64,000 nucleotides of DNA from contig OY764332.1 in the NCBI GenBank assembly GCA_963668425.1, positions 524,336 to 588,335 on the forward strand. Reading direction: 5' to 3'. The notes below the pieces were generated by a model that was given only the letters and a program-made list of their open reading frames with translations, ran no database searches and was not told where the DNA came from. The position numbers and the translations under genes are program-made. Source of the stretch: Minisyncoccota bacterium. GTDB lineage: Bacteria; Patescibacteriota; Minisyncoccia; Phycocordibacterales; JABAAK01. Below are positions 26,605-64,000 of the stretch, piece by piece. Every line of letters begins with the position of its first letter. The first letter of the stretch is position 1.

Positions 26605-29600
26605 ATGAATATTTCTTTGTTTCGTAGTGTTCCGCGTCTTGTTCTCTTCGGTATAGGGGTACTGCTTGCGTTGTATGTCGGTGTAACGGTTGTGTATGCA
26701 GCCACACTGGCAAGTAATACCGGTCAAACAGATGGCGGTAATCAACTTATGAACAGCACTACTGGATTGGGACAGGTGTTTACAACAGGTACTGCGCCAA
26801 GCACCCTTACGTCTGTTACCTTTGAGGTAGTTCTTGCAGCATTACAGAGTGACACTGCTCACCTTGAGGTTAGCGTACAAGGATTGAATTCTTCAGGAGA
26901 CCCGGATGGCGAAGATCTGGCATCAGTGGATTTCTTTGGTGCTACTGGTCATGACCCTATTGAGTCAACGGGAACTGTGACTGCCACCTTTGGTAATGCG
27001 CTTTCGTTGCGACCAAGTACTAGCTATGCCATTGTCTTTGACTATACTAGCACTATGCAGATCAGGGGCACCGCTGCAACTGCTGAGGACTCCTCATCTA
27101 ATGGTTGGACAATCGGAAATGTAATTCACTCTCACGATCGCTCTAGCGGTTGGTCATCAGGCACAGCTGGCGCTCTTGAGTTGGAATTTGTTGGTGATAT
27201 TGTTACTACTGCGGTATATCTTGACAGCTCCTCAGACACTGAAACAGTTACTACTGCCAATATTGCTAGCGCGAGTACTGTAGATAACCATACCAGTGAC
27301 TACACGCCAGAGCTGCAGTTGGTTGGTTTTACTTCGGGTGCTACCGTTACTGTTACGGCGACATCTGGCTCTCAAACAGATAGAGTTGTAACAAGGTCAG
27401 GTGACGGCGCGGTAACACTCCCGCCACTTGTGCCAGGGACTTGGGCGATTAGTGCTACTGATGGCACTAATACTGCCGCGACTCTTACTATAAAGATTGA
27501 GGCGTTGGCGCCTTTGCGGCTTGCGCGACCTGGTTCTGCTCAATCCAACCGTATTCATGATGGCACTTATAACGGTGTTTCCCAACCCTTTACTACAGGA
27601 TCTGATTCGTATCTTCTCACAGGCCTTTCGTATACGGTTGGGATTTTATCGCCTTCAAGCAATTCAAGTGCGACCTTTTCTGTTGCCATTCAGGGAGATG
27701 ATGGTGAGGGAAATCCTGATGGTATTCCGCTTACATATGTTGCTGTAGATCATGGTGACATTGAGTCAATAGGAGATAAGAATGTTACCTTTCCTGATGG
27801 CGGTGTTAGGTTAGCACCCTCTACGCAGTACCATGTGGTATTTCGTTACTCTTCTAACACGGCTGATCTTCGGCTTGCATTTCGGCAGATCTTTTCTCAA
27901 CCGCCGACGTCTTCTGCTGGATGGAGTTTTTCAGGTCAATCCATTGGCTACCGCGTTAGTGACAGTTCCTGGGTTGATCATCTTAACTGGAGCGGTCATT
28001 ATCTGCAGTTGGGATTTTTTGGGTTTGATACTGATGACTCTCGTGCAATTATTCTAGAATCTGCTTCAGACACAGGATCAAGTAATTCTGATGGCATAAC
28101 AAGTGACTTTACTCCTTCTGTCACAGTTTCTGGGTTTGGTGATGATGAAAGAGTAACCGTTTTGTTTGCTAATGCCGATACTACTACTTCTCCAATATCT
28201 CTGGTAGCAAATCTTGGGGATGGAGATATCTTGGGTACGCGTTCATTTGCAGAAGGGGTGTGGAAGGCGTATGCACGAACGACAGTGGGTGGTGCTATTA
28301 TTTCTACCCCTGCCACACGGATAGAGATTGACAGAACAGCCCCAGCACTCTCTGGTGCAGTTGCTATAGGTGTGACCGGTGATACTACCCCTGACTTTAC
28401 TTTTACCTCTTCTGAGGCAGGAACAATTGTAGTAGGGGGGAGCTGTGTCTCTACTGATACGGTACTGCAAGAAGGGGAAAATACTATTACCTTTACCACA
28501 GCACTTACTGCCGGTACTACCTACTCTGACTGTACTATTACACCAACAGACGTGGCAGGAAATCAAGGTACCGCTCTAACAGTTCCGTCTTTTACTGTCC
28601 TTTCGCAATTGGTTTCTAATGAAGGGGAATCTAGTTCAGACGGTAATATTATTGGAGGGAATAGTGAGTATGTAATGGCAAATAGGATTACTGTTTCAAG
28701 TACTGTCACTGCCCCTTATACCCTTGAACAGCTATTTTTCAATGTTAGCACGGCAGCACCGACAGCCACCACTGGTGATTTTACGGTTAGTGTGCAACAA
28801 GAGCATTCTAGCGAACAGCGTCCAGGCGGTACGGATCTTGCCACTGTCACTATTCCAAGTAGCGATCATGCGTACCTTGAGAGTACAGGGGTAAAGAGCG
28901 TAACCTTTTCTTCCCCCGCGATATTGCAACCAGGTGTGGACTATTGGGTGGTATTTTCCTATTCTAATACCTCTTCGGCAAGCACCTTTAGCTTAGCGCG
29001 GACTACGTCTGCCAATCAAGCAGGATTGACTGGTTGGGGCATAGGAGATGTTTGTCGTCAAACTAGTTCCACAGATTCTACTTGGACAGATTGTGCCGGT
29101 AGTTCGGTGCTAGTGGTTGGGCTGTATGGAAGAGAGATAGCACAAAGCGTTGCCCTGAAGACCAGTTCAGACACAGGGGAGAGTACCTCTGACAATATAA
29201 CAAACGACGCAACACCTACTATTGTAATTGATGGGTTTGATAGCACTCCGGCGATAACCGTTACGGCAGATCACGCTTCTGCGGCTGATGTTACTGTGAG
29301 TCGTGATGGTGACGGTGATGTTACTCTTGGGACGCTTGCAGACGGTACCTGGACGATTACCGCTAGTGCTGGGGGGAATACCTCTCCGGCATTAACCATA
29401 TATGTTGACACCACTGATCCATCTGTTTCGGCGTTAACGACAGCAACATTTTTCACAGGGCACCTTGGTAGCTCTGATACCTATATCAATAAGGCGGATA
29501 GTGACGCGAGTGCACAAGCTCTCTTTACGGCGCCTACCGGCTCTGACACCCATGGAAGCTACCGCTTCTTTTATGCGGTAGTGTCGTCAAGTACCGACTG

Positions 29601-32600
29601 TTCTACGCAGAGTATTACTGCTACTGCCATTCCTGAAACTGATGATGTGACCACTGATGGCACCTACAAGGCATGTGTTACGGTAGAGGACGTGGCGGGG
29701 AATACACAAACTCTTACTTCTCCTACCTTTACCAGAGACACCGTGGTGCCGGTGCTCTCTCAACCTTTAAGTATTGGCTCTGTTTCAAATCCTACCCCTG
29801 CCTTTACCTTCACCTCTTCTGAGGTAGGAGCAGTGACAGTTGGCGGGTCATGTAGTGCCGGTGCCGCGACTGCGACTGCATCGGCTACTACCATCACACT
29901 ATCAACGCTTTCCCCCGGTACCTACGGCAACTGTACTGTGACGGTTACCGATGTTGCAGGCAACGCGTCTGCCGCATTGTCTATTCCAAGCTTTACTATC
30001 ATCGCAGCGTCAATCACTATTAGCATGTCATCTGATCCCGCGAAACTTCGTGTTGCTATTGCGACCGTTACGGGAGATAGTCCGTCAGACCTGCTCTGGG
30101 CACTCTATGATCCGAATGCTACTCCTACTCCTACCTGTGCCGGCTCTACTAGTAATGTGGTATGGGACGCTAATCAGTCATACACCTCAGGCGCTGAGGT
30201 ATTCGTGGGTACTGTAGAAGCAGACAACGGAAAGAAGGTGTGTTTCAGGGCAACTGTCAACGGTGCTGTTATATACCAATCATCGGATGCTATTGTCGGT
30301 ATTGACAGGACTCCGCCCGTTGCGCCAACACAAACCCCTGACCTTGTTGCAGCTGGTGATACTGGGTCTTCTGACACTGACAATATTACAAACCAAACCA
30401 CCGGTCTTAGTTTTACTATTGGTGGACTTGCAGCAGAAAACGGTGGTGTCGTAACATTCTGGTCAGGGTCAACAAGTCTTGAAATTGCTCGTATTAATAA
30501 TGGTACTGCTACTGTGACTGGTGTTATACTTGCTGAAGGAGTTCATGAGATCACCGCAAGAGCCATTGATGTGGCAGCAAACACAGGACCTGCCTCTCCC
30601 GCGCTAACAGTAACAGTTGATACCACGGCACCTGCTGCCCCTGGTATTGCACTGTCTTCTGACACAGGAAGTAGTTCCAGTGACAAAAAGACCAATGATG
30701 CCACCCTCGCTATCTCTAGTATTGAGGCAGGGGCAACCTGGGAGTACAAGCTGGACACTAATGGTGACAGTGATACTGATAACGATGGTAATCCAGCGAC
30801 AAACGATGATTTGGATGGTATAAGTTTTTCTAGTGGTACTGGTACCACAATCCCAAAAACAGCATTTTCTGGCGCGACGGATGGTATACAGCGGGTACTG
30901 GCGCGTCAAACAGACGTAGCAGGAAACATCTCAGCGAGTTCAGCAGTATTTGACTTTACCTTGGACACCACAAACCCTACTATTGCTAACCCTGTACATG
31001 CCACAGTACTGGCTTCCAATGCTGGGTATCTCAACCTTGCGGGGTTTGCTGGCACCCCTCAGGATCTGGTTCTTGCAGCTGTTGCCACAGATGCCGGAGG
31101 TTCGGTGACTGTTACCTATGCGGTGGGAGCAGGATCTACTCCTGATTGTTCAGCAAACACCTTGACGTATGCATCTGCTATCCCGCAGACCGATGATGTG
31201 ACAGGGGCTGATGGAGATTACTCCGTATGTGTGAAAGGGGTTGATGTGGCGGGGAATATTCATTATGCTAAGACCTCCTTTATAAAAGACACCACCCCAC
31301 CGGCACAGATAACCGCCCTTGATCTGGTGACCGCTGAGGACACGTATGCGGATGTTAATGGTGATGGTGCCTACAATAGTTCTGTTGACTTTGGTTCAAA
31401 TACGGACAACATTACGTCAGACGATGATGTTACCTTTACCATGTCAGGGAAACAAGGATCAGGATCTCTTGTAATTACTGCGGACCCTGCGACAGCGGGC
31501 TCTATTGATAAACAGAAACGTATTACGTTATCCTCTTCAAATTCTGCTAATAGCGTGGCGCATGCGTTTGATTTTAGTGGTGATGATGACACCTATAGTG
31601 TTACAGCAGTACAGATCGACCGTGCGGGAAACCCGTCAACGCCATCAGCAGCGTTATCAGTAACCATAGATACGACTGCACCGAATCTCACTCCAACCAT
31701 TGACCTTAAAGCGAGTTCGGATACAGGAGTAAGCAACACTGACAACTATACCAACGCTGAGCAAATGGAATTTACCATTGGATCGCTTACTGAGGCAAAT
31801 CTGCGTGCTATTTTGAAAGCTGGGAGCACTGTTCTCTCTTCGCAAACTGGCGGGTTCGCGGATTATGCGACTGCAACTACTACTGATTTGACATGGGATA
31901 ACCGTACCGTTAAGAGTGAAGCCGATACCACGATTGGTGTTGTGCTCTACGACCAGGCGGGTAACAAACAAGATTTTACTAGTTCACTGACGGTGTACCC
32001 TGACTATACGGTGAGTGCGCCATTTTTCTCTAGGCATAGTTCACACGATTCAGGAGCGAGTAATTCAGATGGTATCACAAACAATCAACAGCTTGCATTT
32101 ACTCTTGCATCTGTTGAGGTAAAGACCACAAACCGAGGAAACGGTGCGCAGGTTACGGTTTACGATGACAGCTCAACCACCTCGGACCCAAGTGCCGGAT
32201 CTGCTGTTGCCTTGGCATCTGAGGTGGGGCATAGTAATGCTGACGTTACCAATAGCTCACATCTATTGACAACTAGTAAATCAGATTATGCTAACGGAAA
32301 GCACACCTTCTATGCGTGTCAGGAAGATGATGCAGGAAACAGCGCATGCTCATTGGCGGCACCATGGGTAGTTGACATTACCGCGCCAGATGCACCGGGG
32401 GCACCAGATTTACACCAAGATGATGACTCGCGAGGAGCGCATGCAAACAGCGCCCGTGACGGTACTGATGAGGATGACATTACCAACAGTACCACAGAAC
32501 TTGATTTTGCTGTGCAGGCATCAGGATCAAACGTAGAGACAAACGGGGCACATGACCAGCACCAGATACGCTTTTACCTGTGGACTAAGGCAGACGCAGC

Positions 32601-35600
32601 GGACACTTCGGTTGGGGATAGTGAACTCACCGAGCTCAAATCAGTTGCTGTAGATGCCGCATCTAACATACAAACCATTAGTGATGCTGGCTATGTTGCC
32701 AATGGAGAGCGTGGAGCAACAAAGCAGCTCTACACCTCAACAGATACTGCCCTTACCGATGGTTTCCACTACTTTGTCGCCAAGCAGTATGATGTGGCAG
32801 GTAACCTCTCGGCAGTATCAGACGCATTGCGTATATTTGTTGACACACAAGCACCGGACTCTATTACCGTTGACCCAACCCTGCACCCAACCAGTGACTC
32901 TGGAACATCAGACAATGACAAGCAAACCTCATCAGTAGATCTGCTTTTCACTTTTAATCCAACACCAATGTCAGGAGACATTGACTACTTTGAGGTACGA
33001 AGAAAGCGACTCAATAGCGATTTGTCCTCTGCGGAAACCACCTTTACCTACCCGTCAGACGCAGACACCGTAGAGCAGACATCGTATGAGTTCCTTGCAA
33101 AAAACGCAGCCCAAAGCGCTCTTGTCGCAGAGGCAGGGAACACCTACGCAGACGGTGCTTACGCATCTGGTGGTGCCGTGAAGATCTCCGCCATGGATAT
33201 CTCACACTTTAACACCTGGTATGCCTTCAGCATCTATGCCGTTGACATCGCCGGAAACGTGCGACAAGGTTCTAACTCTACCAACGTGCGTATTTTAGTA
33301 CCACCACCAACTCCTACCAAGATGGACCTGTCAGCTACCAAGGACTCAGGAGCACTAGACACAGACAACACTACCAATGAAACCTCTTGGACACTATCTG
33401 GTAGCTATCAGAACACCTCACAAGCAGAGCAAGACAATGACGCAGCAGCCGGCGTAAAAAGAATTGTCGTTAGTGTTAGTAAGCTTGACAGTCAGAATCA
33501 AGCAACAGAAACCCTCACCCACACCTTTACCACAGACACTGACCAAAACTTAACCAACGACATTGCTGTGCCATCTAATGCAAATGATCCCTACACCTAC
33601 ACCTACACCTTTGACGCCACCACCTTCACCACTCTAGAGGACGGTGCTTACCTTGTCACCGCAGCAGCTTACAACAGTGCAGGAGAAACAGGAGGACAGT
33701 CAGCTTCACTGACCATCACCCTTGATAGAGTCGCACCAACACCAGAGGAGCACATCACCCTACGTACCAAGTCCTTTACCGGATCAACCAACCAAGAATA
33801 TATCTTCTCCTACGCAAACCCATCAAACAACGAGCCAAACGCATCAATTGTTCTGGCAGACGCAGACGGTGCTACTGTCAGGACCCTTGACAGCACAAAC
33901 CCTACCTACACCCACACAACCGCCAATGCTATCACCGAATACACCGCAACGTACATTGATGCAGCAGGAAACAGTTCAGAAGCAGTTACCCTCCTTGCCG
34001 TATCACTCCCCCCAACCCTCACCTCGTATACCACCGCGACAAACAGCTACATCGTTATCGCCGCACCCCAGCAAGGAGCAACTATCGCCACAACCACACA
34101 GTACAACGCACAGTCATCCAACCTCTGTGATCCAACTGGATCACGCATTAGTGCGGCAACCTTTGCAACAAATGAAATCAAGACATCAGTAACCACGGAC
34201 TACTGTGTAGAAGCAGTGGACTCAGCAGGGAACGTCAGAACTATTAGAATTAAAGCAGACGCAAACGATCTCATCGCAAACGCTGCAGTACATGACGAAG
34301 ATGATGCAGGAAGCAGTCAGCATGACAACAAGACAAATATCCCAAACCCACGATACACCGCAACCACCCTACCAGGTTCAACGGTACGCATGCAGTCAAG
34401 AATACAAGCATCTCCAGCAAACACTTGGACAGACATACACACCGTTACCGCAGACGCAGACACCGGTATGTTTACCATCCAAACTATTCTTCCTGACCCG
34501 GTAACCGCTGATGCTGTTGTAGAGCTTCAGGGCTTTGTCAGTAACGCAACACTCGGCACCTCTGCGATTGGTCCTATTACCCTTTCTCCTGTTACCCTTG
34601 ACGTGACCGCACCTCAGGCACCCAGCGCCCCTGCCCTTGCAGCAGGAGACGACACGGGGTCAGTGAACAGTGATGCTGTTACCAGCACCACCACTAACCT
34701 CACCTTTGCCTACACCGGTCTTTCAGCGGAGAATGGAGGGTTTGTGAGAATGTATGCAGGTTCAACCCTCTTAGGTGCAACTGTTATCGCATCTGGCAGC
34801 GCCTCTGTTTCCATTACCCTCGCAGAAGGTGTCCACACCCTTGTCGCAAAGCTCATTGACGAGGCAGGGAATGAAGGACCCGCATCACCACCCCTTACCG
34901 TGACGATAGACACTACCGATCCAGCTATCACTATCATCCGACTCAATGATGAGGACACCACCATTGATGTAAACACCAGATTCATCGCAGTAGCAGCAGA
35001 TCAGACATCTCTCATCTTCAAGGTAGCTGAGGAGACCAAGGCATCCTGTACCGCACGCACCATAGATGCAAACACCGCATACACATCAGGAGCTCTGTAT
35101 GACCCGAGTGACTCTTCAACAAATGGCTACTGTTTCGTTGTCACCGACCTAGCAGGCAACAGAGCAACTATGCACACCGATGACGCTATTGAAGGAGTCG
35201 GCTCCTTTGCTATCCAAGGAGGCACAGACGAATCAGGAACACTCTACACCACCTCAGGTACCAAGACCATCACCGGTGTTACTGCACCAGAGGCACAGGT
35301 ACTCATCAAGCTGGCAGACGCAACAGATGACCCCTCAACGTACACCACCAGTAACCTGCAGGACACCTCATTTGCAACCATCTCCTTTGCTATACCAACC
35401 GGCGAGACAACCTTTGAGCAACCCCTCAGTATTGGATCAGGTGACACCGGCAAGAAGGTGGTCGGATGGATATGGACGGATGCAGCTGATGCAACCACTG
35501 CAACCCCAGCAATCACCCTCGGTACCTTGACGGTAGACGACACTGCACCAACTATTACCGCAGGAGTCATCGCATCAAGCAACGCAAACCCCGCCTTTGC

Positions 35601-37440
35601 AAAGCAAGGAGACACTATCACCGCATCCTTTACTACCTCAGAAGCAATCATCGCAGAGACCACCACTATCAACGGCATCCCCGCATCCTGTTCTGACACC
35701 AACAACACCTTCTCCTGTGCTGCAACCCTTACCAACGTAGCGACTGAAGGACCTGCAACGGTTGTAATAGCGGTCACTGACAAAGCAGGGAATACCACGA
35801 ACAGAACTATCACCAACCCCGACATCACCGTAGATGCTATGGCACCAGCAGTAACCATCACCAACCTCAGAACAAAACACCTCGCCACAACTGGCACTCA
35901 AACCTTTACCCTCACTATTACCGATACCAACCAAATCAACCCCGGTACCTACGTCTTCACCGCAACCGGAGCAACCCTTTCAACCTGTCAGATTGTTGTA
36001 CCGGCAACCAGCAACAACGAACAAACAACCTGTACCATCACCACCTCTTCGGCTACAGACGGCACCGCTGTGTCACTGACCGTACCAACCCTCACTGATG
36101 CCTCAGGAAACACCAAAGTATCTCACCAGACAACCCTCGGCTACGTAGACACCCAAGCACCAACCATCACCTCAATCACCTCATTTGACGACTCACGAAC
36201 AAAGAAGTTTTCCTTTACCGTAGCTGTAACCCACAACCAACACACAAGCAACACCAACCCAGAAACCCTCACCGCAGTATTTTCAGGAGATTGCAGTAGA
36301 TTTGAAGCAGAGACAGATACCTGGACCGGTACCACCACCGGCACCTACACCACTACCTTCTCCGCACCAAAAGGTACATACAAAACCTGTACTCTCGCTC
36401 TCAGAGATGAAGCAGGTAACACCTCAGCAACCCAGACCTTTGACCAGTTCACTGTCAAAGGTGGAGGAGGGATAGGGCGTATCGGAGACGTTGCCCGCAA
36501 TGCTATCTCCTCCCTCTTTGATGTGTTTGATGGAGCTGAGCAGCCAACCCCAACCCCAATTGTCCCACCAACAACACCTGTCTTTGACATCGGACAACCG
36601 GGACAACAAGAGCAAACGGCTGCGTTTATTGAAGAGGCAACCTCCTTCACCAGAGACCTCACCATTGGCTCAATCGGAGAAGATGTCAGAGCACTCCAGA
36701 AGATGCTCAACACCCTCGGCTTCATCGTGTCTACAACCGGAGCAGGATCTCCAGGAGCAGAGAGTACTTACTTTGGCGAGAAGACCAGACAAGCCCTCAT
36801 TCGTTATCAAGAGGCAAACAGTATTACTCCAGCATTCGGTTACTTTGGACCACGTACCAGAGCGCATATACAAGGACAAGGACAACTTCAGCCAACAGCA
36901 CCAGTAGAAGAGGTTAGATCATTTGTTGATACAGCGACAGAAGAAGAGCAACAACCAGCACCAACAGTGTCTACTGTAGCTGAAGAGGCACCCTTTGCCG
37001 GCTTTACCAGAGACCTCACTATCGGCTCAGTCGGAGCAGATGTCAGAGCACTCCAAAGCATGCTCAACACCCTTGGCTTTATCGTGTCTACAACTGGAGC
37101 AGGATCTCCAGGAGCAGAGAGTGTCTACTTTGGCGAGAAGACCAGACAAGCCCTTATCCGTTACCAAGAGGCAAACAGTATCACCCCGGCATTAGGTTAC
37201 TTTGGACCACGTACCAGAGCGCAGGTACAAAGGAAGCAACCAGTAGAAGAAGTTAGATCATCTATTGAAACGGCAGAACAAGAGGAAGAGGAGCGACGAG
37301 AACAACAGCCGTCTCCTGAACAACAGCAACAAGCACAGCCGACACAAGAGCAAGAAGGGGATGTCACGGACTATGAACCAATCACTAACCCACTATTCCG
37401 TGTGCGTACACTGCCTTCCCATGGAGCACCAAGTTTTTAG
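26605..37440 (+). CDS. giant surface protein 1 (3611 aa): N-terminal anchor, three copies of a non-Ig about 150-aa module, Ig-like tandem repeats, two C-terminal peptidoglycan-binding domains
   Basis: ATG at 26605 (the track start at 26599 is GTG). The hydrophobic N-terminus is RLVLFGIGVLLALYVGVTVVYAA. More than 30 repeats end in …(V/I)D(T/R)TAP and carry SSDTGSSNSDGITSDFTPSVTVSG-type bacterial Ig-like motifs. Two PG_binding_1-like repeats follow (FTRDLTIGSIGEDVRALQKMLNTLGF…GYFGPRTRA), and the protein ends LFRVRTLPSHGAPSF. Confidence 0.85.
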   Translation: MNISLFRSVPRLVLFGIGVLLALYVGVTVVYAATLASNTGQTDGGNQLMNSTTGLGQVFTTGTAPSTLTSVTFEVVLAALQSDTAHLEVSVQGLNSSGDPDGEDLASVDFFGATGHDPIESTGTVTATFGNALSLRPSTSYAIVFDYTSTMQIRGTAATAEDSSSNGWTIGNVIHSHDRSSGWSSGTAGALELEFVGDIVTTAVYLDSSSDTETVTTANIASASTVDNHTSDYTPELQLVGFTSGATVTVTATSGSQTDRVVTRSGDGAVTLPPLVPGTWAISATDGTNTAATLTIKIEALAPLRLARPGSAQSNRIHDGTYNGVSQPFTTGSDSYLLTGLSYTVGILSPSSNSSATFSVAIQGDDGEGNPDGIPLTYVAVDHGDIESIGDKNVTFPDGGVRLAPSTQYHVVFRYSSNTADLRLAFRQIFSQPPTSSAGWSFSGQSIGYRVSDSSWVDHLNWSGHYLQLGFFGFDTDDSRAIILESASDTGSSNSDGITSDFTPSVTVSGFGDDERVTVLFANADTTTSPISLVANLGDGDILGTRSFAEGVWKAYARTTVGGAIISTPATRIEIDRTAPALSGAVAIGVTGDTTPDFTFTSSEAGTIVVGGSCVSTDTVLQEGENTITFTTALTAGTTYSDCTITPTDVAGNQGTALTVPSFTVLSQLVSNEGESSSDGNIIGGNSEYVMANRITVSSTVTAPYTLEQLFFNVSTAAPTATTGDFTVSVQQEHSSEQRPGGTDLATVTIPSSDHAYLESTGVKSVTFSSPAILQPGVDYWVVFSYSNTSSASTFSLARTTSANQAGLTGWGIGDVCRQTSSTDSTWTDCAGSSVLVVGLYGREIAQSVALKTSSDTGESTSDNITNDATPTIVIDGFDSTPAITVTADHASAADVTVSRDGDGDVTLGTLADGTWTITASAGGNTSPALTIYVDTTDPSVSALTTATFFTGHLGSSDTYINKADSDASAQALFTAPTGSDTHGSYRFFYAVVSSSTDCSTQSITATAIPETDDVTTDGTYKACVTVEDVAGNTQTLTSPTFTRDTVVPVLSQPLSIGSVSNPTPAFTFTSSEVGAVTVGGSCSAGAATATASATTITLSTLSPGTYGNCTVTVTDVAGNASAALSIPSFTIIAASITISMSSDPAKLRVAIATVTGDSPSDLLWALYDPNATPTPTCAGSTSNVVWDANQSYTSGAEVFVGTVEADNGKKVCFRATVNGAVIYQSSDAIVGIDRTPPVAPTQTPDLVAAGDTGSSDTDNITNQTTGLSFTIGGLAAENGGVVTFWSGSTSLEIARINNGTATVTGVILAEGVHEITARAIDVAANTGPASPALTVTVDTTAPAAPGIALSSDTGSSSSDKKTNDATLAISSIEAGATWEYKLDTNGDSDTDNDGNPATNDDLDGISFSSGTGTTIPKTAFSGATDGIQRVLARQTDVAGNISASSAVFDFTLDTTNPTIANPVHATVLASNAGYLNLAGFAGTPQDLVLAAVATDAGGSVTVTYAVGAGSTPDCSANTLTYASAIPQTDDVTGADGDYSVCVKGVDVAGNIHYAKTSFIKDTTPPAQITALDLVTAEDTYADVNGDGAYNSSVDFGSNTDNITSDDDVTFTMSGKQGSGSLVITADPATAGSIDKQKRITLSSSNSANSVAHAFDFSGDDDTYSVTAVQIDRAGNPSTPSAALSVTIDTTAPNLTPTIDLKASSDTGVSNTDNYTNAEQMEFTIGSLTEANLRAILKAGSTVLSSQTGGFADYATATTTDLTWDNRTVKSEADTTIGVVLYDQAGNKQDFTSSLTVYPDYTVSAPFFSRHSSHDSGASNSDGITNNQQLAFTLASVEVKTTNRGNGAQVTVYDDSSTTSDPSAGSAVALASEVGHSNADVTNSSHLLTTSKSDYANGKHTFYACQEDDAGNSACSLAAPWVVDITAPDAPGAPDLHQDDDSRGAHANSARDGTDEDDITNSTTELDFAVQASGSNVETNGAHDQHQIRFYLWTKADAADTSVGDSELTELKSVAVDAASNIQTISDAGYVANGERGATKQLYTSTDTALTDGFHYFVAKQYDVAGNLSAVSDALRIFVDTQAPDSITVDPTLHPTSDSGTSDNDKQTSSVDLLFTFNPTPMSGDIDYFEVRRKRLNSDLSSAETTFTYPSDADTVEQTSYEFLAKNAAQSALVAEAGNTYADGAYASGGAVKISAMDISHFNTWYAFSIYAVDIAGNVRQGSNSTNVRILVPPPTPTKMDLSATKDSGALDTDNTTNETSWTLSGSYQNTSQAEQDNDAAAGVKRIVVSVSKLDSQNQATETLTHTFTTDTDQNLTNDIAVPSNANDPYTYTYTFDATTFTTLEDGAYLVTAAAYNSAGETGGQSASLTITLDRVAPTPEEHITLRTKSFTGSTNQEYIFSYANPSNNEPNASIVLADADGATVRTLDSTNPTYTHTTANAITEYTATYIDAAGNSSEAVTLLAVSLPPTLTSYTTATNSYIVIAAPQQGATIATTTQYNAQSSNLCDPTGSRISAATFATNEIKTSVTTDYCVEAVDSAGNVRTIRIKADANDLIANAAVHDEDDAGSSQHDNKTNIPNPRYTATTLPGSTVRMQSRIQASPANTWTDIHTVTADADTGMFTIQTILPDPVTADAVVELQGFVSNATLGTSAIGPITLSPVTLDVTAPQAPSAPALAAGDDTGSVNSDAVTSTTTNLTFAYTGLSAENGGFVRMYAGSTLLGATVIASGSASVSITLAEGVHTLVAKLIDEAGNEGPASPPLTVTIDTTDPAITIIRLNDEDTTIDVNTRFIAVAADQTSLIFKVAEETKASCTARTIDANTAYTSGALYDPSDSSTNGYCFVVTDLAGNRATMHTDDAIEGVGSFAIQGGTDESGTLYTTSGTKTITGVTAPEAQVLIKLADATDDPSTYTTSNLQDTSFATISFAIPTGETTFEQPLSIGSGDTGKKVVGWIWTDAADATTATPAITLGTLTVDDTAPTITAGVIASSNANPAFAKQGDTITASFTTSEAIIAETTTINGIPASCSDTNNTFSCAATLTNVATEGPATVVIAVTDKAGNTTNRTITNPDITVDAMAPAVTITNLRTKHLATTGTQTFTLTITDTNQINPGTYVFTATGATLSTCQIVVPATSNNEQTTCTITTSSATDGTAVSLTVPTLTDASGNTKVSHQTTLGYVDTQAPTITSITSFDDSRTKKFSFTVAVTHNQHTSNTNPETLTAVFSGDCSRFEAETDTWTGTTTGTYTTTFSAPKGTYKTCTLALRDEAGNTSATQTFDQFTVKGGGGIGRIGDVARNAISSLFDVFDGAEQPTPTPIVPPTTPVFDIGQPGQQEQTAAFIEEATSFTRDLTIGSIGEDVRALQKMLNTLGFIVSTTGAGSPGAESTYFGEKTRQALIRYQEANSITPAFGYFGPRTRAHIQGQGQLQPTAPVEEVRSFVDTATEEEQQPAPTVSTVAEEAPFAGFTRDLTIGSVGADVRALQSMLNTLGFIVSTTGAGSPGAESVYFGEKTRQALIRYQEANSITPALGYFGPRTRAQVQRKQPVEEVRSSIETAEQEEEERREQQPSPEQQQQAQPTQEQEGDVTDYEPITNPLFRVRTLPSHGAPSF
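32383..37440. repeat. about 5-kb segmental duplication, copy in giant gene 1 (near-identical to 49069-54579)
   Basis: Long runs of nucleotide identity; the identical 156-aa and 94/139-aa out-of-frame ORFs in the track at 33722/50396 and 32654/49328 are by-products of the duplication. Confidence 0.8.
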
Positions 37441-37461: not shown

Positions 37462-37831
37462 ATGACAACCACTATAACAGAGCCATATAGAAAGGGACAA
37501 ATAACCACACCCATCAGCAAACCCTTTCTTGACGAAGCCATTGAGCCGTCAGAGAGTAAGCGTATGAGGTGTGCTAAAGGTGCCTCTTTTGCATCTCAGA
37601 TACTAAGAGGAGATGTTGTTGACGCAGTTAACAAAAAGACTAATCCAATCTTGTATACATGGAAATAATGGGAGAGCTTTAATACCTTTTGCGGGTTCAG
37701 GTTCAGAATGTGTCGTGGCAGAATCTCTTGGCATAGGATATGTAGGTATAGAAATAAATCCTGAATATGTTGAATATGCTGAAAAATGGTTACTTTCATA
37801 CAAAAGGCGACTATCCCTTGACACCGCGTGA
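37462..37831 (+). pseudogene. DNA methyltransferase C-terminal fragment (frameshifted remnant)
   Basis: Two overlapping frames; the second encodes ALIPFAGSGSECVVAESLGIGYVGIEINPEYVEYAEKW, which is the motif I (DPFxGSGTT-like) and GIE…PEY C-terminal region of beta-class N4/N6 MTases, with no N-terminal catalytic half. Confidence 0.5.
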
Positions 37832-37899
37832 TAACGCAGGGTGCAAAACTGGTGCTGTGGCGTGGAAAACAATTGTACAATGTATACAAAGACCAATGT

Positions 37900-39330: not shown

Positions 39331-39367
39331 TTTGCGGTGGTTATGGTGGTGTTATACTGTTTTTGTT

Positions 39368-54713: not shown

Positions 54714-55014
54714 TAACGTGTAAAAATATCCTTATTCTATAGGATATTATTTTGTGTGTTGGATAAATGTCTTTAGTTTACAAGGTTTTTGTGTGTGTTT
54801 ACAGTATGCTGTTAAGTGTAACGTGTAAAAATATCCTTATTCTATAGGATATTATTTTGTGTGTTGGATAAATGTCTTTAGTTTACAAGGTTTTTTTGTG
54901 TGTTTACAGTATGCTGTTAAGTGTAACGTGTAAAAATATCCTTATTCTATAGGATATTATTTTGTGTGTTGGATAAATGTCTTTAGTTTACAAGGTTTTT
55001 TTGTGTGTTTACAG
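54714..55014. repeat. three tandem 105-bp repeats, each with the perfect palindrome aatatcct-N8-aggatatt
   Basis: Unit starts at 54714, 54819 and 54924; the units are near-identical; the third is truncated just before the downstream start codon. Confidence 0.8.
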
Positions 55015-55033
55015 TGTATGGTACTATGATGTT

Positions 55034-56005
55034 ATGGATAAGAAAGAAACCACAGAAGAACATCTGTTGCGCTTGCTTGAACAGAAAAGAAGCCCTACTT
55101 CTCTTTCTGAGGAGGTTGGTGTTAGTCGACAAAACATACATCGTTATTTAGATGCCTTCATAAAACGGGGGATAGTGGAAAAATTTGGCATTCCGCCTTC
55201 TGTCTATTACATCAAACGAACACCACATATACTTGATACATTTGCATATCTAACGCCGGCAGGAGATTTGCTTGAGGGAGATGAAGCGTTTGTTGCGTGG
55301 TCCAGGAGAAATCTTAAAAAATTGACATTGCATGAGAAGGAGGAGCGGTATATGAAATTGATGGAAGCATTGGAGAGCAAAAAGGACCAAGGGTTCTTTT
55401 CCCTGATCGGCAAGTTATCTGCATTAGAGGAAATTGGTGAGACAATACACCTTTCTTCTCTTAAGGTGATTGAGCTCTCTAGATTGGAGGATTTTGGTCG
55501 AACACACCTTCAGTATTTGTTGGAATCCGCGAAATCTGTAAAGAATACAGAACGCAGAGAGCCCGGTATGCGTGCTGTTGGAAAGATTATTGATAGAGTG
55601 TTTCCTAAGATAGAGCGCCATGCTGCACAAATGGAGGTTGATGCGGTAGCTTTTGTGCCTCATACGCTGAAGAGGGGTGTTCAGCTGATGGAAGAGATAA
55701 AAAAGGAATGGAAGAAAAAATCCACTATACCAGTTATAGAAGTGAAAAAAATATTTGGGTCTGAGGCAAGGGAGCAAAAAAGCATTAAGGACGTTAGGGA
55801 GCGAATTGAGAATGCTGAAAAAACCTTTCAAGTAACTGCCGGTCCATCGTATGAAAACGTTATGCTTGTGGATGATTTTATTGCTTCGGGGGCAACGCTC
55901 AATCAGGTTGCAAAAGAGATACAAGGGGTACGCGAAGCAGAACAGGTGTTTGGATTGGCGCTGGTAGGAGAGGAGAAAGGGTATTCGGTTATACGGAGCG
56001 TGTAG
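55034..56005 (+). CDS. PurR-like regulator: N-terminal winged HTH + C-terminal type I phosphoribosyltransferase domain
   Basis: HTH region LLRLLEQKRSPTSLSEEVGVSRQNIHRYLDAFIKRGIVEK; PRPP-binding motif VMLVDDFIASGATL; start at ATG 55034 (MDKKETTEEHL), just after the repeats. Confidence 0.55.
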   Translation: MDKKETTEEHLLRLLEQKRSPTSLSEEVGVSRQNIHRYLDAFIKRGIVEKFGIPPSVYYIKRTPHILDTFAYLTPAGDLLEGDEAFVAWSRRNLKKLTLHEKEERYMKLMEALESKKDQGFFSLIGKLSALEEIGETIHLSSLKVIELSRLEDFGRTHLQYLLESAKSVKNTERREPGMRAVGKIIDRVFPKIERHAAQMEVDAVAFVPHTLKRGVQLMEEIKKEWKKKSTIPVIEVKKIFGSEAREQKSIKDVRERIENAEKTFQVTAGPSYENVMLVDDFIASGATLNQVAKEIQGVREAEQVFGLALVGEEKGYSVIRSV

Positions 56006-56363
56006 TTTGCTGTGAGGTTTGTTGTTGCCTGCCTTGGCGTGTCTTGTTTGTCTGATGGATGAGGATTGTTGTTGCGTTTGTTTCTTGTAGCTACCAAACA
56101 AGTCCACGGACTTGCCGTTGCAGTTGTAAAAAAACGAACACTGCACCGAACTACCCATGAACAAGCATTACTCAAGGTAAACATGCCGAGGTACATTGCC
56201 ATATCTTTGTACGATAAAAACGAAATAAACGGTTATTACAAAAATAATGTGTGAAAAGTTTTATACACAATACACTTTTAGTAAAGCAAAGAAAAGAATA
56301 GAATAGAGATATACTAGTAGTAATGGTGAGTAAGTAAAGAATTCTAAATTGTCAGATATATAT

Positions 56364-59300
56364 ATGATACGTACTATGGCAGTGCCACATACAAAAGGTA
56401 AAGGTCTTGCAAAATATATACTCCTCAACGGAGTCCTTCTTTTCATACTTCTCCTTTCAACCGTTTCAGCGCAAGCGCAAACCGTTGACCTTGCCACTGC
56501 ATCAGACACTGGTATAACATCAGGCGGTGTAGCATCAACAGACAAGATTACTAGTGACACCACACCAGATATTGTAATAACTGGATACAGTTCTGGAGAT
56601 ACCATAACCGTAACCGCAACACATGCAACTGCAAGTGATGTAACGGCAACCATAACAGGAAATGGAACGGTAACCCTCGGAGCCCTTGCCGAGGGGGTCT
56701 GGAGTATAACAGCAGACGCAGGAGGGACAAGCTCTAACACTCTAGAGATAACGGTGCTTGCTGAACTGGTAAGCACGATGGGGCAGAGTGATGATGGTGG
56801 AGTAGTACAGGTGGGTAGACATTCGGGTACTGAGACAAGAAAGGTAGCTCAAAAATTTACAACAGGAAGAGCAGGATACACAGTAAAAGAAATACATTTT
56901 GACGTAGCAACAGCATACAACGACGGAGGTAATAACCAAAATATTGAACTAGAAATAATGACAGCAAACGGAGATAACCCTGGTTCAAGAGTAGGAGGTA
57001 TCCTCAACGGCTTTACAGAGTCATCTGTGACTGTCGGTGACTATAAATATGAAATTCCGTCGAATAAATGGGTCACTCTTGCACCAAACACTGAGTATTT
57101 CCTAGTATTTCAAATAAAATTTCTTGCTATCAGTACTTTTAGCCTACAGCAAACGGCAAGTAATGCCGAAACTGGTCTACCAGAGTGGTCTATGGAAGAT
57201 GCATGTAGAACAACAGTCGTTCTGTCACAGAGTCATCTTTTCGGTAGTGCAGGTACTTGGGGGAACTGTGCAAGTGACGCTACAGTAAAATTAGGTCTAT
57301 ACGGTAATACAAATCCTTCCGTTTTCCTCAAAGCAAGCTCAGACACAGGTTCCTCAAACATCGACAACATTACCAACGACGTTACACCAACCTTCACTGT
57401 CTCAGGACTTGATGATAATGAATTAGTAACAGTAACTGCAACTCAGGCTGGTGAGACTACTGCAATTAGAGCAAGAAGTGGTAATGGAGACATTACACTC
57501 CCAACACTTGCCAATGGCGTGTGGAGAGTGAGGGCAGGCGATGGAACCACTACCACCCCTTACATTAGCGTTACTATAGACCGTACGAGTCCTACTGCCA
57601 TCACTAGTGTCAGTAGTATAGGGACTGTAGCGGATACCACTCCTGACGTAACCTTTACTACACCAGAAGCAGGAGTATTGGTGGCGAATAGTGCGTGTGG
57701 TATCACTGCAGAGGCAGTTACATCTGGAACAAATACCATCACCCTTACTGCACTTACTAATGGAACCTACGCCTCTTGTACTATCCAGATGGCTGATGTA
57801 GCAGGAAATACTTCACCTACAGCAACCATTCCTTCCTTTACAATCACAGGACCAGCAATTGATCTTAAGTCCGCTTCAGACACAGGAACTTCTGACACCG
57901 ACAACATTACCAACGACGTTACACCAACCTTCACTGTCTCAGGACTTGATGACAATGCAACAGTAAGATTAGCTGCATCTCAGTCGGGTGAGACTAATGT
58001 AACTGGCTCAAGAACTGGTAATGGAGACGTTACGCTAGGAACACTTGTAGAGGGTGTATGGTCAGTAGCAGCAACCGACGGAACCACTGTCATAACTCTC
58101 GATATTACCGTAGACACCACTGCCCCTACTGCTATCACCAGCATAAGCTCTATACCAACTGGAACCGATACCACTCCTGACCTTACCTTCACTGCATCAG
58201 AAGCGGGAGTACTAGTAGCGAATACTGCGTGTGGTATCACTGCAGAGGCAGTCACAACTGGATCAAGCACTATCACGCTGACTGCACTTGCTCCTGGCAC
58301 CTACGCCTCTTGTACTATCCAGATGGCTGATGTAGCAGGAAATACTTCACCTACAGCAACCATTCCTTCCTTTACAATCACAGGACCAATCATTGATCTT
58401 AAGGCAAGCTCAGATTCAGGAAATTCTGACACCGACAACATTACCAATGACGATACACCAACCTTCACCGTTACAGGACTTGATGGTGGTGCAACAGTAA
58501 CAGTAACCGCAAGTAAATCTGGGGAGACCAGTGTAACTAACACAAGAACTGGTAATGGAGACGTTACCCTAGGAACACTTGTAGATGGCGTGTGGTCAGT
58601 GTCGGCATCAGATGGAACAACTACCACCTCTTCCATTAGCGTTACGATAGATACAGTTGCACCAACAAAGCCAAGCACTCCTACCATTGCCTCTCCTTCT
58701 CATGACACAGGTATCTCAAGCACCGACTATATTACCAGCAACACCCGCCCCGTCTTTCACGCAGCTCACGCTGAAACAGTTTTTGCTGAACACACACTTG
58801 ATTCTACTGTTCTCCCCCTTGCTGAATATGGTGCTCATGCCTTTACATCAGCATCGGCATTAGCAGATGGGGTACACACCCTCTCAGTAATATCAATTGA
58901 CCTTGCAGGAAACAGATCACCTGCTTCAGATACCCGTTCCTTTACCATTGACACTACTGCTCCTGTTATCTCTGCTGTTAGTAGTATAGGGTCAACAATA
59001 GATACCACTCCTGATCTTTCCTTCACCACATCAGAAGCAGGAACCTTAGTAGCGAATAGTGCCTGTGGTATCACTGCACAAGCAGTTACAAGTGGATCAA
59101 ACACTATCACATTAACAGAATTAAGTGTCGCCACCTATGCCTCTTGTACTATCAACATGAGTGATGTAGCAGGAAACACAGGAACAGCAGTCAGTATTAC
59201 TTCTTTTACCATTCAATTAGGACCAAAAATAGTCCTCAAAACTGCTTCAGATTCAGGAAGTTCTAACACTGACAACATCACCAATCACACCACACCAATT

Positions 59301-62300: not shown

Positions 62301-64000
62301 GATGCATCAGAGCTTACCCCCGTACAAGTAGAAGCAAGCCCAAGTGACACCACCGACAACCTTGCAGCAACCCCTTACCTCTTGAAAGGTTCAAGTGCAG
62401 GAGCAGACGTAACCTTCCAAAACGTAGTCCTCTCAGAAGGCACCCACCTCTTAGTAGCAGGACAAATAGATAAAGCAGGTAACGATGAGGCATACTCACC
62501 AGCACTCACCATCACCGTAGACAGAACTGCACCAGATGCACCGGGGGCACCAGATTTACACCAAGATGATGACTCTCGAGGAGTGCATGCAAACAGTGCG
62601 CGTGACGGTACTGATGAGGATGACATTACCAACAATACCACAGAACTTGATTTTGCCGCGCAGGCATCAGGAACAAGCGGAGCACATGACCAGCACCAGA
62701 TACGCTTTTACCTGTGGACTAAGGCAGACGCAGCGGACACTTCGGTTGGGGATAGTGAGATCACCGAGCTCAAATCAGTTGCTGTAGATGCCGCATCTAA
62801 CATACAAACCATCAGTGATGCTGGCTACACCGCCAATGGAGAGCGTGGAGCAGCAAAGCAGCTCTACACCTCAACAGATACCGCCCTTACCGATGGTTTC
62901 CACTACTTTGTCGCAAAGCAGTATGATGTGGCAGGTAACCTCTCGGCAGTATCAGACGCGTTGCGTATATTTGTTGACACACAAGCACCAGACCCTATTA
63001 CCGTTGACCCAACCTTGCACCCAACCAGTGACTCTGGAGCATCAAACAATGACAAGCAAACCTCATCAGCAGATCTGCTTTTCACTTTTAATCCAACACC
63101 AATGTCAGGAGACATTGACTACTTTGAGGTACGAAGAAAACGACTCAATAGCGACCTATCGGACGCGGAAACCACCTTTACCTACCCGTCAGACGCAGAC
63201 ACCGTAGAGCAGACATCGTATGAGTTCCTTGCAAAAAACGCAGCCCAAAGTGCTCTTGTCGCAGAGGCAGGGAACACCTACGCAGACGGAGCTTACGCAT
63301 CTGGTGGTGCCGTGAAGATCTCCGCCATGGATATCTCACACTTTAACACCTGGTATGCCTTCAGCATCTATGCCGTTGACATCGCCGGAAACGTGCGACA
63401 AGGTTCTAACTCTACCAACGTGCGTATTTTAGTACCACCACCAACTCCCACCAAGATGGACCTGTCAGACACCAAGGACTCAGGAGTACTAGACACAGAC
63501 AACACCACCAATGAAACCTCTTGGACACTATCTGGTAGCTATCAGAACACCTCACAAGCAGAGCAAGACAATGATGCAGCAGCCGGCGTAAAAAGAATTG
63601 TCGTTAGTGTTAGCAAACTTGACAGTCAGAATCAAGCAACAGAAACCCTCACCCACACCTTTACCACAGACACTGACCAAAACTTAACCAACGACATTGC
63701 TGTACCATCTAATGCAAATGATCCCTACACCTACACCTACACCTTTGATGCCACCACCTTCACCACTCTAACGGACGGTGCTTACCTTGTCACCGCAGCA
63801 GCCTACAACAGCGCAGGAGAAACAGGAGGACAGTCAGCTTCACTGACCATCACCCTTGATAGAGTCGCACCAACACCAGAGGAGCACATCACCCTACGCA
63901 CTAAGGCCTTTACCGGATCAACCAACCAAGAATACCTCTTCTCCTACGCAAACCCATCAAACAACGAGCCAAACGCATCAATTGTTCTGGCAGACGCAGA
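56364..64000 (+). CDS. giant surface protein 3 (partial, more than 2540 aa, continues beyond the window)
   Basis: N-terminus MIRTMAVPHTKGKGLAKYILLNGVLLFILLLSTVSAQA is near-identical to giant 2. The frame stays open to the window end, so it is absent from the ORF track, which lists only closed ORFs. It has the same Ig-like repeat motifs and long blocks matching giant 2. Confidence 0.8.
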   Translation, partial: MIRTMAVPHTKGKGLAKYILLNGVLLFILLLSTVSAQAQTVDLATASDTGITSGGVASTDKITSDTTPDIVITGYSSGDTITVTATHATASDVTATITGNGTVTLGALAEGVWSITADAGGTSSNTLEITVLAELVSTMGQSDDGGVVQVGRHSGTETRKVAQKFTTGRAGYTVKEIHFDVATAYNDGGNNQNIELEIMTANGDNPGSRVGGILNGFTESSVTVGDYKYEIPSNKWVTLAPNTEYFLVFQIKFLAISTFSLQQTASNAETGLPEWSMEDACRTTVVLSQSHLFGSAGTWGNCASDATVKLGLYGNTNPSVFLKASSDTGSSNIDNITNDVTPTFTVSGLDDNELVTVTATQAGETTAIRARSGNGDITLPTLANGVWRVRAGDGTTTTPYISVTIDRTSPTAITSVSSIGTVADTTPDVTFTTPEAGVLVANSACGITAEAVTSGTNTITLTALTNGTYASCTIQMADVAGNTSPTATIPSFTITGPAIDLKSASDTGTSDTDNITNDVTPTFTVSGLDDNATVRLAASQSGETNVTGSRTGNGDVTLGTLVEGVWSVAATDGTTVITLDITVDTTAPTAITSISSIPTGTDTTPDLTFTASEAGVLVANTACGITAEAVTTGSSTITLTALAPGTYASCTIQMADVAGNTSPTATIPSFTITGPIIDLKASSDSGNSDTDNITNDDTPTFTVTGLDGGATVTVTASKSGETSVTNTRTGNGDVTLGTLVDGVWSVSASDGTTTTSSISVTIDTVAPTKPSTPTIASPSHDTGISSTDYITSNTRPVFHAAHAETVFAEHTLDSTVLPLAEYGAHAFTSASALADGVHTLSVISIDLAGNRSPASDTRSFTIDTTAPVISAVSSIGSTIDTTPDLSFTTSEAGTLVANSACGITAQAVTSGSNTITLTELSVATYASCTINMSDVAGNTGTAVSITSFTIQLGPKIVLKTASDSGSSNTDNITNHTTPIFIVSGFDSSAAVVVTATHATADTVRGFGDTTGNGEVIVPSNLADGVWTVTAAANISGTIISSPPISVTIDTAAPGKPATPTLAQTSDSGVSNSDDITKITNPLVGTTTTGEGYVYEWTVNGTVLTGSTTFHTNTGVLAGGTHTASVKVTDAAGNQSVASDDYTFTVDTTVPTISNVGSIGTTFDDAPDLAFTTSEAGVLVANSGCGITAATVASGANTITLTTLTNGTYGSCTIQMSDVAGNTSPTASIPSFTIETGGIAIAALATSHAPSREATATVTGSSPSGLNWALFDPGATPAETCGSGLTFTSTYVSETAVTIASAEADNGKKACFRATVSGTTVYQETDTIAGIDATNPSALLTLQTQLGSGSKTAFTTATSNIFFKVGDKFILTDASTDAGSGIDTSTRDLTLTRGTQQQHTDGSATTETTTASAGAWTYTVGAGDNGILKYDYSISDRAGNSGSAELTITNLFVDTTAPTAPVIDLDDESDSGSSNADNNTNDTTPSFTITNPTARITGSAINNEAGKSEEVIEWHMTVAGSSTFTKQTGSATTFTPGTALTDGVYKIKALFKDKAGNTTESTVITFTIDTTAPGKPAAPGFFFGDTGISDTDNITNNDRGIIIRVTTSEPFPASKAEWTLNSEVQPVIGSSYVPLTPLSDGVYTISVKITDTAGNQSPASDDFTFTIDTTPPTAPSNTPFDVFGDTTPDITFEASTGTNDIGAYKVHVITNTTLTDKTCPAKTVTTDTLAAFANTVTSSDASVTFTPGTALTEGKYCVYIEQSDVAGNRVITPGKAIYIDTTPIDVSGIVVDLLDAFDSTRPEVTEDGESDSDSVWTPGKTDDYTKETTISVEVSNIPVETIMGERRKFSVVDAHSGTFFVIETPTTDTFSQTFTGLTLTGHATVSYKAKNNVRYITFTDLAGNSSRLRYDLEADAETKAPNTPNLAATSDSGALDTDNYTNAEYLDIVVEDDDGDTNREYPTIVRLYTWVDTATNAGVVDASELTPVQVEASPSDTTDNLAATPYLLKGSSAGADVTFQNVVLSEGTHLLVAGQIDKAGNDEAYSPALTITVDRTAPDAPGAPDLHQDDDSRGVHANSARDGTDEDDITNNTTELDFAAQASGTSGAHDQHQIRFYLWTKADAADTSVGDSEITELKSVAVDAASNIQTISDAGYTANGERGAAKQLYTSTDTALTDGFHYFVAKQYDVAGNLSAVSDALRIFVDTQAPDPITVDPTLHPTSDSGASNNDKQTSSADLLFTFNPTPMSGDIDYFEVRRKRLNSDLSDAETTFTYPSDADTVEQTSYEFLAKNAAQSALVAEAGNTYADGAYASGGAVKISAMDISHFNTWYAFSIYAVDIAGNVRQGSNSTNVRILVPPPTPTKMDLSDTKDSGVLDTDNTTNETSWTLSGSYQNTSQAEQDNDAAAGVKRIVVSVSKLDSQNQATETLTHTFTTDTDQNLTNDIAVPSNANDPYTYTYTFDATTFTTLTDGAYLVTAAAYNSAGETGGQSASLTITLDRVAPTPEEHITLRTKAFTGSTNQEYLFSYANPSNNEPNASIVLADA
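60061..61100. repeat. about 1-kb block near-identical to 46567-47600 of giant gene 2
   Basis: Begins ttgaaacaggaggtatcgctattgctgcacttgccacttctcatgcacc in both; the protein segment is IETGGIAIAALATSHAPSREATATVTGSSPSGLNWALFDPGATPAETCGSGLTF. Confidence 0.75.
62100..64000. repeat. third copy of the shared 3' block (collinear with 48641-50540 and with 32383-33870)
   Basis: cagacgcagaaacaaaagcaccaaacactcctaatcttgcagcaac and downstream sequence are shared; the ORF-track by-product ORFs 62788-63207 equal 49328-49747. Confidence 0.75.

Follow-up and report, generated by a model that had tools for sequence, protein, structure and literature searches.

Fibrillar adhesins of monoderm bacteria, among them the sortase-anchored proteins with immunoglobulin (Ig)-like repeats, are several thousand residues long and consist of an export signal, an N-terminal tip, an Ig-like stalk and a C-terminal wall anchor, in this order (PMC8286594). 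Their anchors are of the LPXTG/sortase, SLH, LysM or choline-binding type; Monzon et al. (2021) also included PG_binding_1, a peptidoglycan-binding domain (PGBD), in their search for anchors, but their text contains no example of it (PMC8286594). The present report describes a group of giant putative surface-protein genes, here called g1, g2 and g3, in a 64,000-nt stretch of contig OY764332.1 (the window) from a candidate phyla radiation (CPR) bacterium. The encoded proteins share the order of parts and the size of the fibrillar adhesins but differ from them in the organism that carries the genes, in the tip, which belongs to the NCBIfam family choice-of-anchor R, and in the anchor, for which non-covalent PG_binding_1 repeats are predicted. 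An earlier reading of this DNA from its sequence only (the sequence-only reading) had stated that this is not a standard described adhesin class. The overall plan is the known fibrillar-adhesin plan, whereas the PG_binding_1 anchor and the choice-of-anchor R tip do depart from it; the locus is an unusual variant (putative fibrillar adhesins with PG_binding_1 anchor and choice-of-anchor R tips in a four-gene array) and not a categorically new system.

By organization, the closest system-level analogue is found in Apilactobacillus kunkeei, whose Giant1-5 cluster comprises five genes in succession that encode proteins of 3,000–8,000 aa and account for about 6% of a 1.5-Mb genome (PMC12863079). 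The likeness concerns consecutive, presumably extracellular giants that take up approximately 6% of a small genome, candidate binding domains at the N-terminus and diversification by recombination. However, there is no evidence of homology, the tips of Giant1-4 are beta-solenoids (SRRP-like) instead of jelly-rolls, and the phylum, the stalk domains and the anchoring are different. Within the CPR, a part in host attachment has been proposed for the giant surface proteins that Vampirococcus lugosii, a predator, possesses (PMC8080830) and for PGBD proteins that are highly expressed in Paceibacteria (PMC10936435). These organisms resemble the one studied here in their reduced genomes and in the possession of very large surface proteins (1,392–4,163 aa) or of extracellular PGBD proteins. 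Vampirococcus giants, however, contain WD40, PKD, DUF11, integrin and fibronectin domains, the Paceibacteria proteins are described as enzyme-like and not as Ig-repeat giants, and neither study describes tandem paralogues built on a constant base. The RTX adhesins exported by type I secretion systems (T1SS), such as LapA, SiiE and MpIBP (PMC6272769, PMC5550230, PMC7493085), are likewise acidic and project ligand modules on a stalk of Ig-like (Big-type) domains. They have a C-terminal RTX/T1SS signal, are retained in the outer membrane by their N-terminus and carry the ligand region near the C-terminus, in contrast to the predicted N-terminal Sec-type signal and opposite polarity of the proteins examined here. 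Assignment of the latter to the RTX/T1SS group was rejected, as Pfam scans of the giants detected no HemolysinCabind or other RTX family; T1SS genes were not found among the neighboring window genes scanned.

Genes g1 to g3 lie on the forward strand, as do the ORFs and domains of the window for which positions are given below unless indicated. Gene g1 occupies positions 26599..37440 (3613 aa when started at a GTG codon; with the ATG at 26605 it has 3611 aa, the form deposited as public protein P0151) and g2 positions 39913..54579 (4888 aa); g3 starts at the ATG at 56364 and its frame runs out of the window at 64000 after 2545 aa. An open reading frame (ORF) scan therefore agrees with the three co-oriented ORFs and the sizes (3611, 4888 and more than 2540 aa) given in the sequence-only reading. 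Its estimate that the genes fill 58% of the window holds for the span 26605-64000, the genes themselves amounting to 33,146 nt or 52%. Public protein P0024 (3739 aa) is taken as the complete g3 product, since it matches all 2545 overlapping residues of g3 with 100% identity and ends in two PG_binding_1 domains (detected with a hidden Markov model, HMM, of our own) followed by a tail as in g1. A fourth paralogue, P0161 (2002 aa), is encoded on the 696,550-bp contig that also carries the public g1 and g3, and in the contig L084 of a sister strain its orthologue begins 291 bp after that of g3. From this co-occurrence and adjacency, the array is read as one of four genes, the fourth being situated outside the window; the tandem array of three described earlier was correct as to the co-oriented giants, but it has four members and unrelated genes are interspersed. 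Together the four proteins comprise 14,242 aa, equivalent to 42.7 kb or 6.1% of the contig. The giant proteins are very acidic (isoelectric point, pI, about 4.1–4.5) and rich in Thr, Ala and Ser.

The N-terminal tip module was recognized by the NCBIfam profile NF041539 (choice-of-anchor R), each of the five copies scoring more than the 30 bits of the curated cut-off. Three copies occur in g1 (26749..27159, aa 51-187, 44.8 bits; 27559..27978, aa 321-460, 47.4 bits; 28669..29091, aa 691-831, 43.8 bits) and one each in g2 (40084..40527, aa 58-205, 70 bits) and g3 (56826..57236, aa 155-291, 59.8 bits), where it is preceded by one Big_13 domain. The one to three non-Ig N-terminal modules per protein noted earlier are thus present and separate from the Ig repeats, although they belong to a family that is already catalogued; no Pfam family matched them. 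A profile search for the module, run exhaustively, retrieved 2,602 cluster representatives at E<=1e-3, many of them 1,000–6,600 aa long and with up to 16 copies of the domain. Sampled members combine it with SWM_repeat, Big_5, fn3 or cadherin-like domains, partners which indicate that these are large extracellular repeat proteins. Most of those found have many module copies and, unlike g1–g3, neither Big_13 arrays nor PGBDs; choice-of-anchor R, Big_13 and PG_binding_1 come together in about six cluster representatives among the best 150 matches. Tails of the LPXTG or PEP-CTERM type were essentially absent from 150 NF041539 members screened with a crude regular expression, so that the case for C-terminal anchoring that might be made from the name "choice-of-anchor" is unsupported.

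Prediction of the fold of this module yielded a confident jelly-roll: the AlphaFold model of the g2 copy, based on a 42-sequence alignment, is all-beta with a mean predicted local distance difference test (pLDDT) of 89.5 and a predicted template modeling score (pTM) of 0.87. At the level of the fold it resembles lectins, carbohydrate-binding modules (CBMs) and phage receptor-binding domains. Comparison with the viral models of BFVD using Foldseek returned mostly uncharacterized phage proteins, the annotated matches including phage tail-fiber, minor-tail, tip-attachment and collagen-repeat proteins. Judged from these models, the module is a catalogued jelly-roll domain whose fold relatives are mostly ligand- or receptor-binding, which constitutes a lead rather than a proof of binding.

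The segment next to the tips is made of Ig-like domains. Pfam scans assigned 11, 18 and 10 stretches of g1, g2 and g3, respectively, to Big_13 (PF19077; E-values 6e-85, 8e-220 and 6e-127; scores 280.8, 713.9 and 415.6 bits versus a gathering score of 27). Domain HMMs of our own, iterated on the three proteins, served to map the Ig-like segments and the N-terminal module, and gave 17, 31 and 18 Ig-like segments, respectively. In g1, a predicted signal peptide and three choice-of-anchor R modules go together with about 20 Ig-like domains, two PG_binding_1 domains and a conserved tail; g2 likewise starts with a predicted signal peptide, and has a single choice-of-anchor R module, no fewer than 31 Ig-like domains and three PG_binding_1 domains. 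A tandem array of a two-domain unit of ~179 aa, consisting of Big_13 and a two-cysteine Ig-like domain, extends over 40576..46587 in g2; its DNA repeats are only 75–80% identical. The dozens of bacterial Ig-like repeats of the sequence-only reading were recovered by both approaches. The long motif that it had described as reiterated in all three (SSDSG...TFTVSG, <=6 mismatches) occurs nine times in g2 and four times in g3, and only loosely in g1.

Both genes that are complete in the window end, as had been claimed, with two or three PG_binding_1 domains (PF01471; cut-off 23 bits). Pfam found two in g1 (72.8 bits; 36646..36873 and 37003..37230, both also detected by our own HMM) and three in g2 (113.6 bits; 53302..54363, at 53302-53529, 53635-53862 and 54136-54363), the latter separated by acidic E/Q-rich linkers; P0161 scored 80.4 bits. 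Domain searches therefore returned both kinds of domain, Ig-like and PG-binding, whose joint absence would have spoken against the earlier reading. Behind the last PGBD and its acidic linker, every family member has a tail with the consensus DYEPITxPLFRVRxxxxxGAPxF, which in g1 (37369..37437) reads DYEPITNPLFRVRTLPSHGAPSF and is also found in g2 (54508-54576), g3 (P0024), P0003, P0043 and P0011. The motif is present twice in P0003, and g2 has a degenerate internal copy. The g1 tail corresponds to no known sorting signal (LPXTG, transmembrane segment or PEP-CTERM). Sortase anchoring was discarded, as the LPXTG-like ...RTLPSHGAPSF is not followed by a transmembrane segment and is missing in relatives. 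SLH-anchored S-layer proteins were likewise discarded after Pfam scans revealed no SLH or lattice-forming domain, and a hidden catalytic or toxin domain was not found in Pfam/NCBIfam scans of the whole proteins and of their unannotated segments.

Each of the three proteins has one strongly hydrophobic segment, located at the N-terminus, in keeping with the signal peptide or membrane anchor claimed for each; a C-terminal transmembrane or hydrophobic segment was not detected in any of them. In g1 this signal peptide or signal anchor corresponds to 26599..26700 (aa 1-34, ...VTVVYA|AT). The site following the hydrophobic segment is VYA|A in g1 and AQA|V/Q in g2 and g3, and by the AXA rule the signal peptide is probably cleaved after VYA or AQA. 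Comparing these parts with those by which fibrillar adhesins are recognized (PMC8286594), the proteins have a stalk of tandemly repeated domains (the Ig-like segments and the ~179-aa periodicity of g2), a candidate anchor included in that list (PG_binding_1) and a predicted export signal (the N-terminal segment with its AXA site). Choice-of-anchor R is not among the adhesive domains listed, and its likeness to lectins, CBMs and phage receptor-binding domains is at the fold level only.

The conservation of the paralogues is mosaic. The C-terminal ~1,400 aa plus the anchor are 94–100% identical (g1 aa ~1950-3350, g2 ~3075-4470, g3 ~2030-3480), whereas the N-terminal halves share merely 15–45% identity and the breakpoints are sharp. 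In DNA, the constant block (proximal stalk and anchor) covers 32371..37352 in g1, 49057..53996 in g2 and, as far as the window reaches, 62517..64000 in g3; the g1 block is 95.4% identical to that of g2 over ~5 kb and 95.2% to the part of g3. Additional blocks are common to g2 and g3. Between paralogues the block shows a dS of 0.04 and a dN of 0.008 and includes a 900-nt stretch without differences, which argues for ongoing gene conversion together with purifying selection. Homogenization within one genome does not account for all the constraint on the base, since 438 aa of it (g1 aa 2775-3212) remain 66–70% identical in distant orthologues that are 35–39% identical overall. Between strains, dN/dS is 0.39 for the variable half of g1, 0.16 for the constant block and 0–0.18 for neighboring housekeeping genes, values which indicate that the genes are functional and that the distal half is less constrained. 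The g3 orthologue of the sister strain (92% identical) has 4383 aa instead of 3739, pointing to variation of repeat number between strains; compared with periscope-type proteins (PMC9704523), g3 does vary in length between strains, yet the intragenic DNA repeats are just 75–80% identical. As an additional observation, the 5' leader and signal-peptide region of g2 (39782-40025) is 86% identical to that of g3 (56220-56476), and the fourth paralogue has the signal peptide of g2/g3, the leader of g1 being different; this suggests a common promoter and export cassette.

Taken together, the proteins are best interpreted, with moderate confidence, as paralogous fibrillar ("stalk") adhesins that are exported by the Sec route and attached to the cell wall by non-covalent binding. 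The N-terminal signal peptide would direct export. Two or three C-terminal PG_binding_1 domains with their acidic E/Q-rich spacers would then hold the protein on the bacterium's own peptidoglycan, whose synthesis in this lineage is supported by an FtsI-type penicillin-binding protein encoded in a related genome. The highly conserved all-beta proximal stalk of ~1,400 aa would form a common base, from which Big_13 and two-cysteine Ig-like domains in variable arrays would extend the molecule; with about 40 or more domains, g2 could reach roughly 150 nm or more, a length comparable to the size of a CPR cell. Binding would be the task of one to three distal choice-of-anchor R jelly-rolls, and their target would most likely be a glycan or a polymer at the surface of a host cell or substrate. 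With four paralogues, the cell would thereby have four different tips and lengths, all built on a single constant base that gene conversion would keep uniform. An orientation with the C-terminus on the own wall and the N-terminus outward, as the sequence-only reading had it, is plausible in view of the AXA sites after the N-terminal segment, the lack of any other membrane segment and the combination of a constant C-terminal with a variable, lectin-like N-terminal part. A role in attachment to a putative host is plausible as well.

Near-identical blocks call for caution about the array itself, and a single giant gene, or strain variants of it, might have been misassembled as tandem copies: blocks of ~5 kb are 95–100% identical between copies, the assembly of another sample is interrupted within the constant block, its g1 orthologue being split by a frameshift exactly at the variable/constant junction (L085 15786-18296). 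A break at this place is expected of a ~5-kb repeat, and the frameshift is a caution on local sequence quality and not on the arrangement. Against an artefact, the copies differ in sequence with 15–45% identical N-terminal halves and in their numbers of choice-of-anchor R modules (3/1/1) and PGBDs (2/3/2), the spacers hold different genes, and all genes are placed on one 696,550-bp contig. In the other sample, which contains a strain 96–97% identical, contig L085 is collinear from the alanyl-tRNA synthetase (AlaRS) gene into g1, and a second contig, L084, carries the g3 orthologue (within 1-9709), the fourth gene and the downstream genes, so that independent assemblies reproduce the junctions at both ends of the array. 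A more distant genome (L082, 647,271 bp) carries a pair of neighboring giant genes with Big_13 and PGBD, likewise at the GAPDH-RpiB-RPE-ion channel position, and the same architecture is found in P0002, P0003, P0032 and P0043 (P0002, P0003 and P0032 having 4,473–5,549 aa). With three distinct copies supported in these ways, misassembly is very improbable. Other searches for relatives were less productive. A word-index search with the N-terminal module of g2 gave 0 matches and one with the 839-aa C-terminal region gave seven, none of them giant, in an index saturated by low-complexity words; a scan of species-representative genomes with constant-block peptides showed no relative and a metagenome scan with the constant block no match. 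The PGBD profile retrieved six metagenomic loci, of which the two with usable flanks (L088 and L090) encode only small PGBD proteins (442 and 858 aa).

As to function, several observations weigh against the adhesin interpretation or leave room for others. The fold likeness of the tip is found at 8–17% identity and extends over more than one class of ligand; PDB searches by sequence returned no solved structure for either the choice-of-anchor R or the PGBD profile, and a literature search for the phrase "choice-of-anchor R" produced no paper. The second giant gene of L082 has the PGBD anchor with no choice-of-anchor R tip detected, and the model of the conserved base segment (g1 aa 2775-3212), all-beta and with no sign of an enzyme fold, is of moderate quality (pLDDT 64.7). 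The h-regions are long (~20 residues), and the segment may therefore be an uncleaved signal anchor, which leads to the reverse arrangement: the N-terminus anchored in the CPR membrane and distal PGBDs gripping a host or prey cell by its peptidoglycan or by a wall polymer related to it. The suggested involvement of PGBD proteins of Paceibacteria in host-cell attachment (Kuroda et al., 2024; PMC10936435) agrees with such an arrangement, as does the 86–97% identity of the PGBD copies to one another, which would suit a conserved ligand. It is nonetheless unlikely, given the AXA-type sites after the hydrophobic segment and the N-terminal position of the hypervariable lectin-like modules, which fits a distal tip better than a membrane-proximal segment. 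Moreover, Gram-negative hosts do not expose their peptidoglycan, and most archaeal hosts have none. A structural role, as a fibrous coat or S-layer-like spacer on the peptidoglycan that binds no specific ligand and serves to protect or space the cells or to filter, would be in line with the large coding investment and with the acidic, Thr/Ala/Ser-rich composition. Non-covalent anchoring to peptidoglycan is analogous to the SLH-type anchoring of S-layer proteins. A thick fibrous coat has been attributed to giant proteins in Vampirococcus (PMC8080830). Against a coat, the tips of the four paralogues are strongly diverged on a base that is constant, the distal domains resemble lectins and receptor-binding modules, the Pfam scans detected no domain of the SLH or lattice-forming kind, and a tandem-Ig stalk is typical of adhesins (PMC8286594); this option is regarded as rather improbable.

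If the proteins are adhesins, a further and speculative proposal, to which only limited credence can be given, is that they make up a cassette-style host-range system of a Kaiserbacteria-like episymbiont. A constant PG_binding_1-anchored base, uniform by gene conversion, would bear swappable choice-of-anchor R tips and Ig stalks, and recombination among paralogues or strains would re-assort the tips and thereby shift hosts or surfaces; PG_binding_1 would represent a new main wall anchor of fibrillar adhesins in this CPR lineage and choice-of-anchor R a new adhesive family. To our knowledge, the way in which most CPR/Patescibacteria recognize and hold partner cells is largely unknown beyond a few cultured Saccharibacteria, in whose attachment type IV pili are implicated. 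The locus offers concrete candidates for attachment in a Paceibacteria-type lineage, with a defined tip domain and a defined anchor (a pair of PG_binding_1 domains), and the constant base with variable tips is an evolutionary signature that predicts which part sets specificity. If correct, the adhesin interpretation would provide the first functional lead for an NCBIfam domain present in about 2,600 cluster representatives and would place PG_binding_1 among the anchors that fibrillar adhesins actually employ. The investment is unusually heavy for a 0.7-Mb genome. Current ideas are not overturned by these findings, which extend known principles to an understudied group.

A CPR origin of the locus, near Kaiserbacteria, is supported by the best matches of AlaRS and by the 696,550-bp contig, in accordance with the reduced-genome, CPR-like organism supposed earlier. 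With the AlaRS of a Candidatus Kaiserbacteria metagenome-assembled genome (JAPOOC010000008.1) the identity is 83%; the other 79 of the best 80 matches are 49–59% identical and nearly all are under Patescibacteria/CPR names. The genes flanking the array in the window are housekeeping genes (L10, L7/L12, HtrA, a short AlaRS of 624 aa, GAPDH, RPE and tRNA-Met). Four ORFs of 294–411 aa with no Pfam match are located at 1896-7428 (1896..2789, 3848..4732 and 4826..6061 on the reverse strand, 6523..7428 on the forward strand) and are typical of the "dark" genes of CPR genomes. The ~2.7 kb between the ion-channel gene and g1 (23415-26171) largely cannot be aligned with the otherwise 95–97% identical sister strain L085 and represent a strain-variable stretch of small ORFs.

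The spacers between the giant genes have contents of their own. Between g1 and g2, the region 37613..39067 begins with a C-terminal DNA methylase fragment (37613..37831). An intact gene for an N6_N4 methylase (37828..38703) follows, and is overlapped by one for endonuclease VII (38687..39067). These genes are read as an insertion because only a 91-aa gene (a small transmembrane ORF) is listed in the equivalent spacer of L082; the cassette is probably mobile or phage-derived and not part of the system. Upstream of g2, an ORF for a small membrane protein of 103 aa (39332..39643; no Pfam family) has homologues of ~90–103 aa between the two giant genes of L082 (22782-23099, 75% aa identity) and near the giant gene of L081 (3111-3407 and 4339-4638, 52–54% aa identity); as these adjoin giants at two further loci, an accessory function is possible. 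The g2–g3 spacer contains an ORF with a winged helix-turn-helix (wHTH) and a ComF-like phosphoribosyltransferase (PRTase) region (54977..56005), all matches being below the curated cut-offs. It is preceded at 54712-55015 by 2.9 copies of a 105-bp unit (99% identity); every copy contains the palindrome TATCCTTATTCTATAGGATA along with a weak promoter-like site, and also the initial codons of the wHTH-PRTase ORF. Promoter and terminator scans of the three spacers gave scores not above those of shuffled controls. GT-rich, C-poor tracts with a 107-bp tandem repeat are found upstream of g1 (26170-26520) and g2 (39220-39780), for which Rfam gave no match. The 27-nt motif GATGGAGGGTTTGCATGTATTGGGATG occurs at 26253, 26356 and 39741, with none expected by chance, and is absent upstream of g3. 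In the relatives, genes for ATPases of the type IV pilus/type II secretion type (MshEN, T2SSE) are located 2–6 kb downstream of the giants (L083 25895-27565; L084 21767-23477), and in L084 a weak T4SS_pilin-like ORF directly follows the fourth paralogue.

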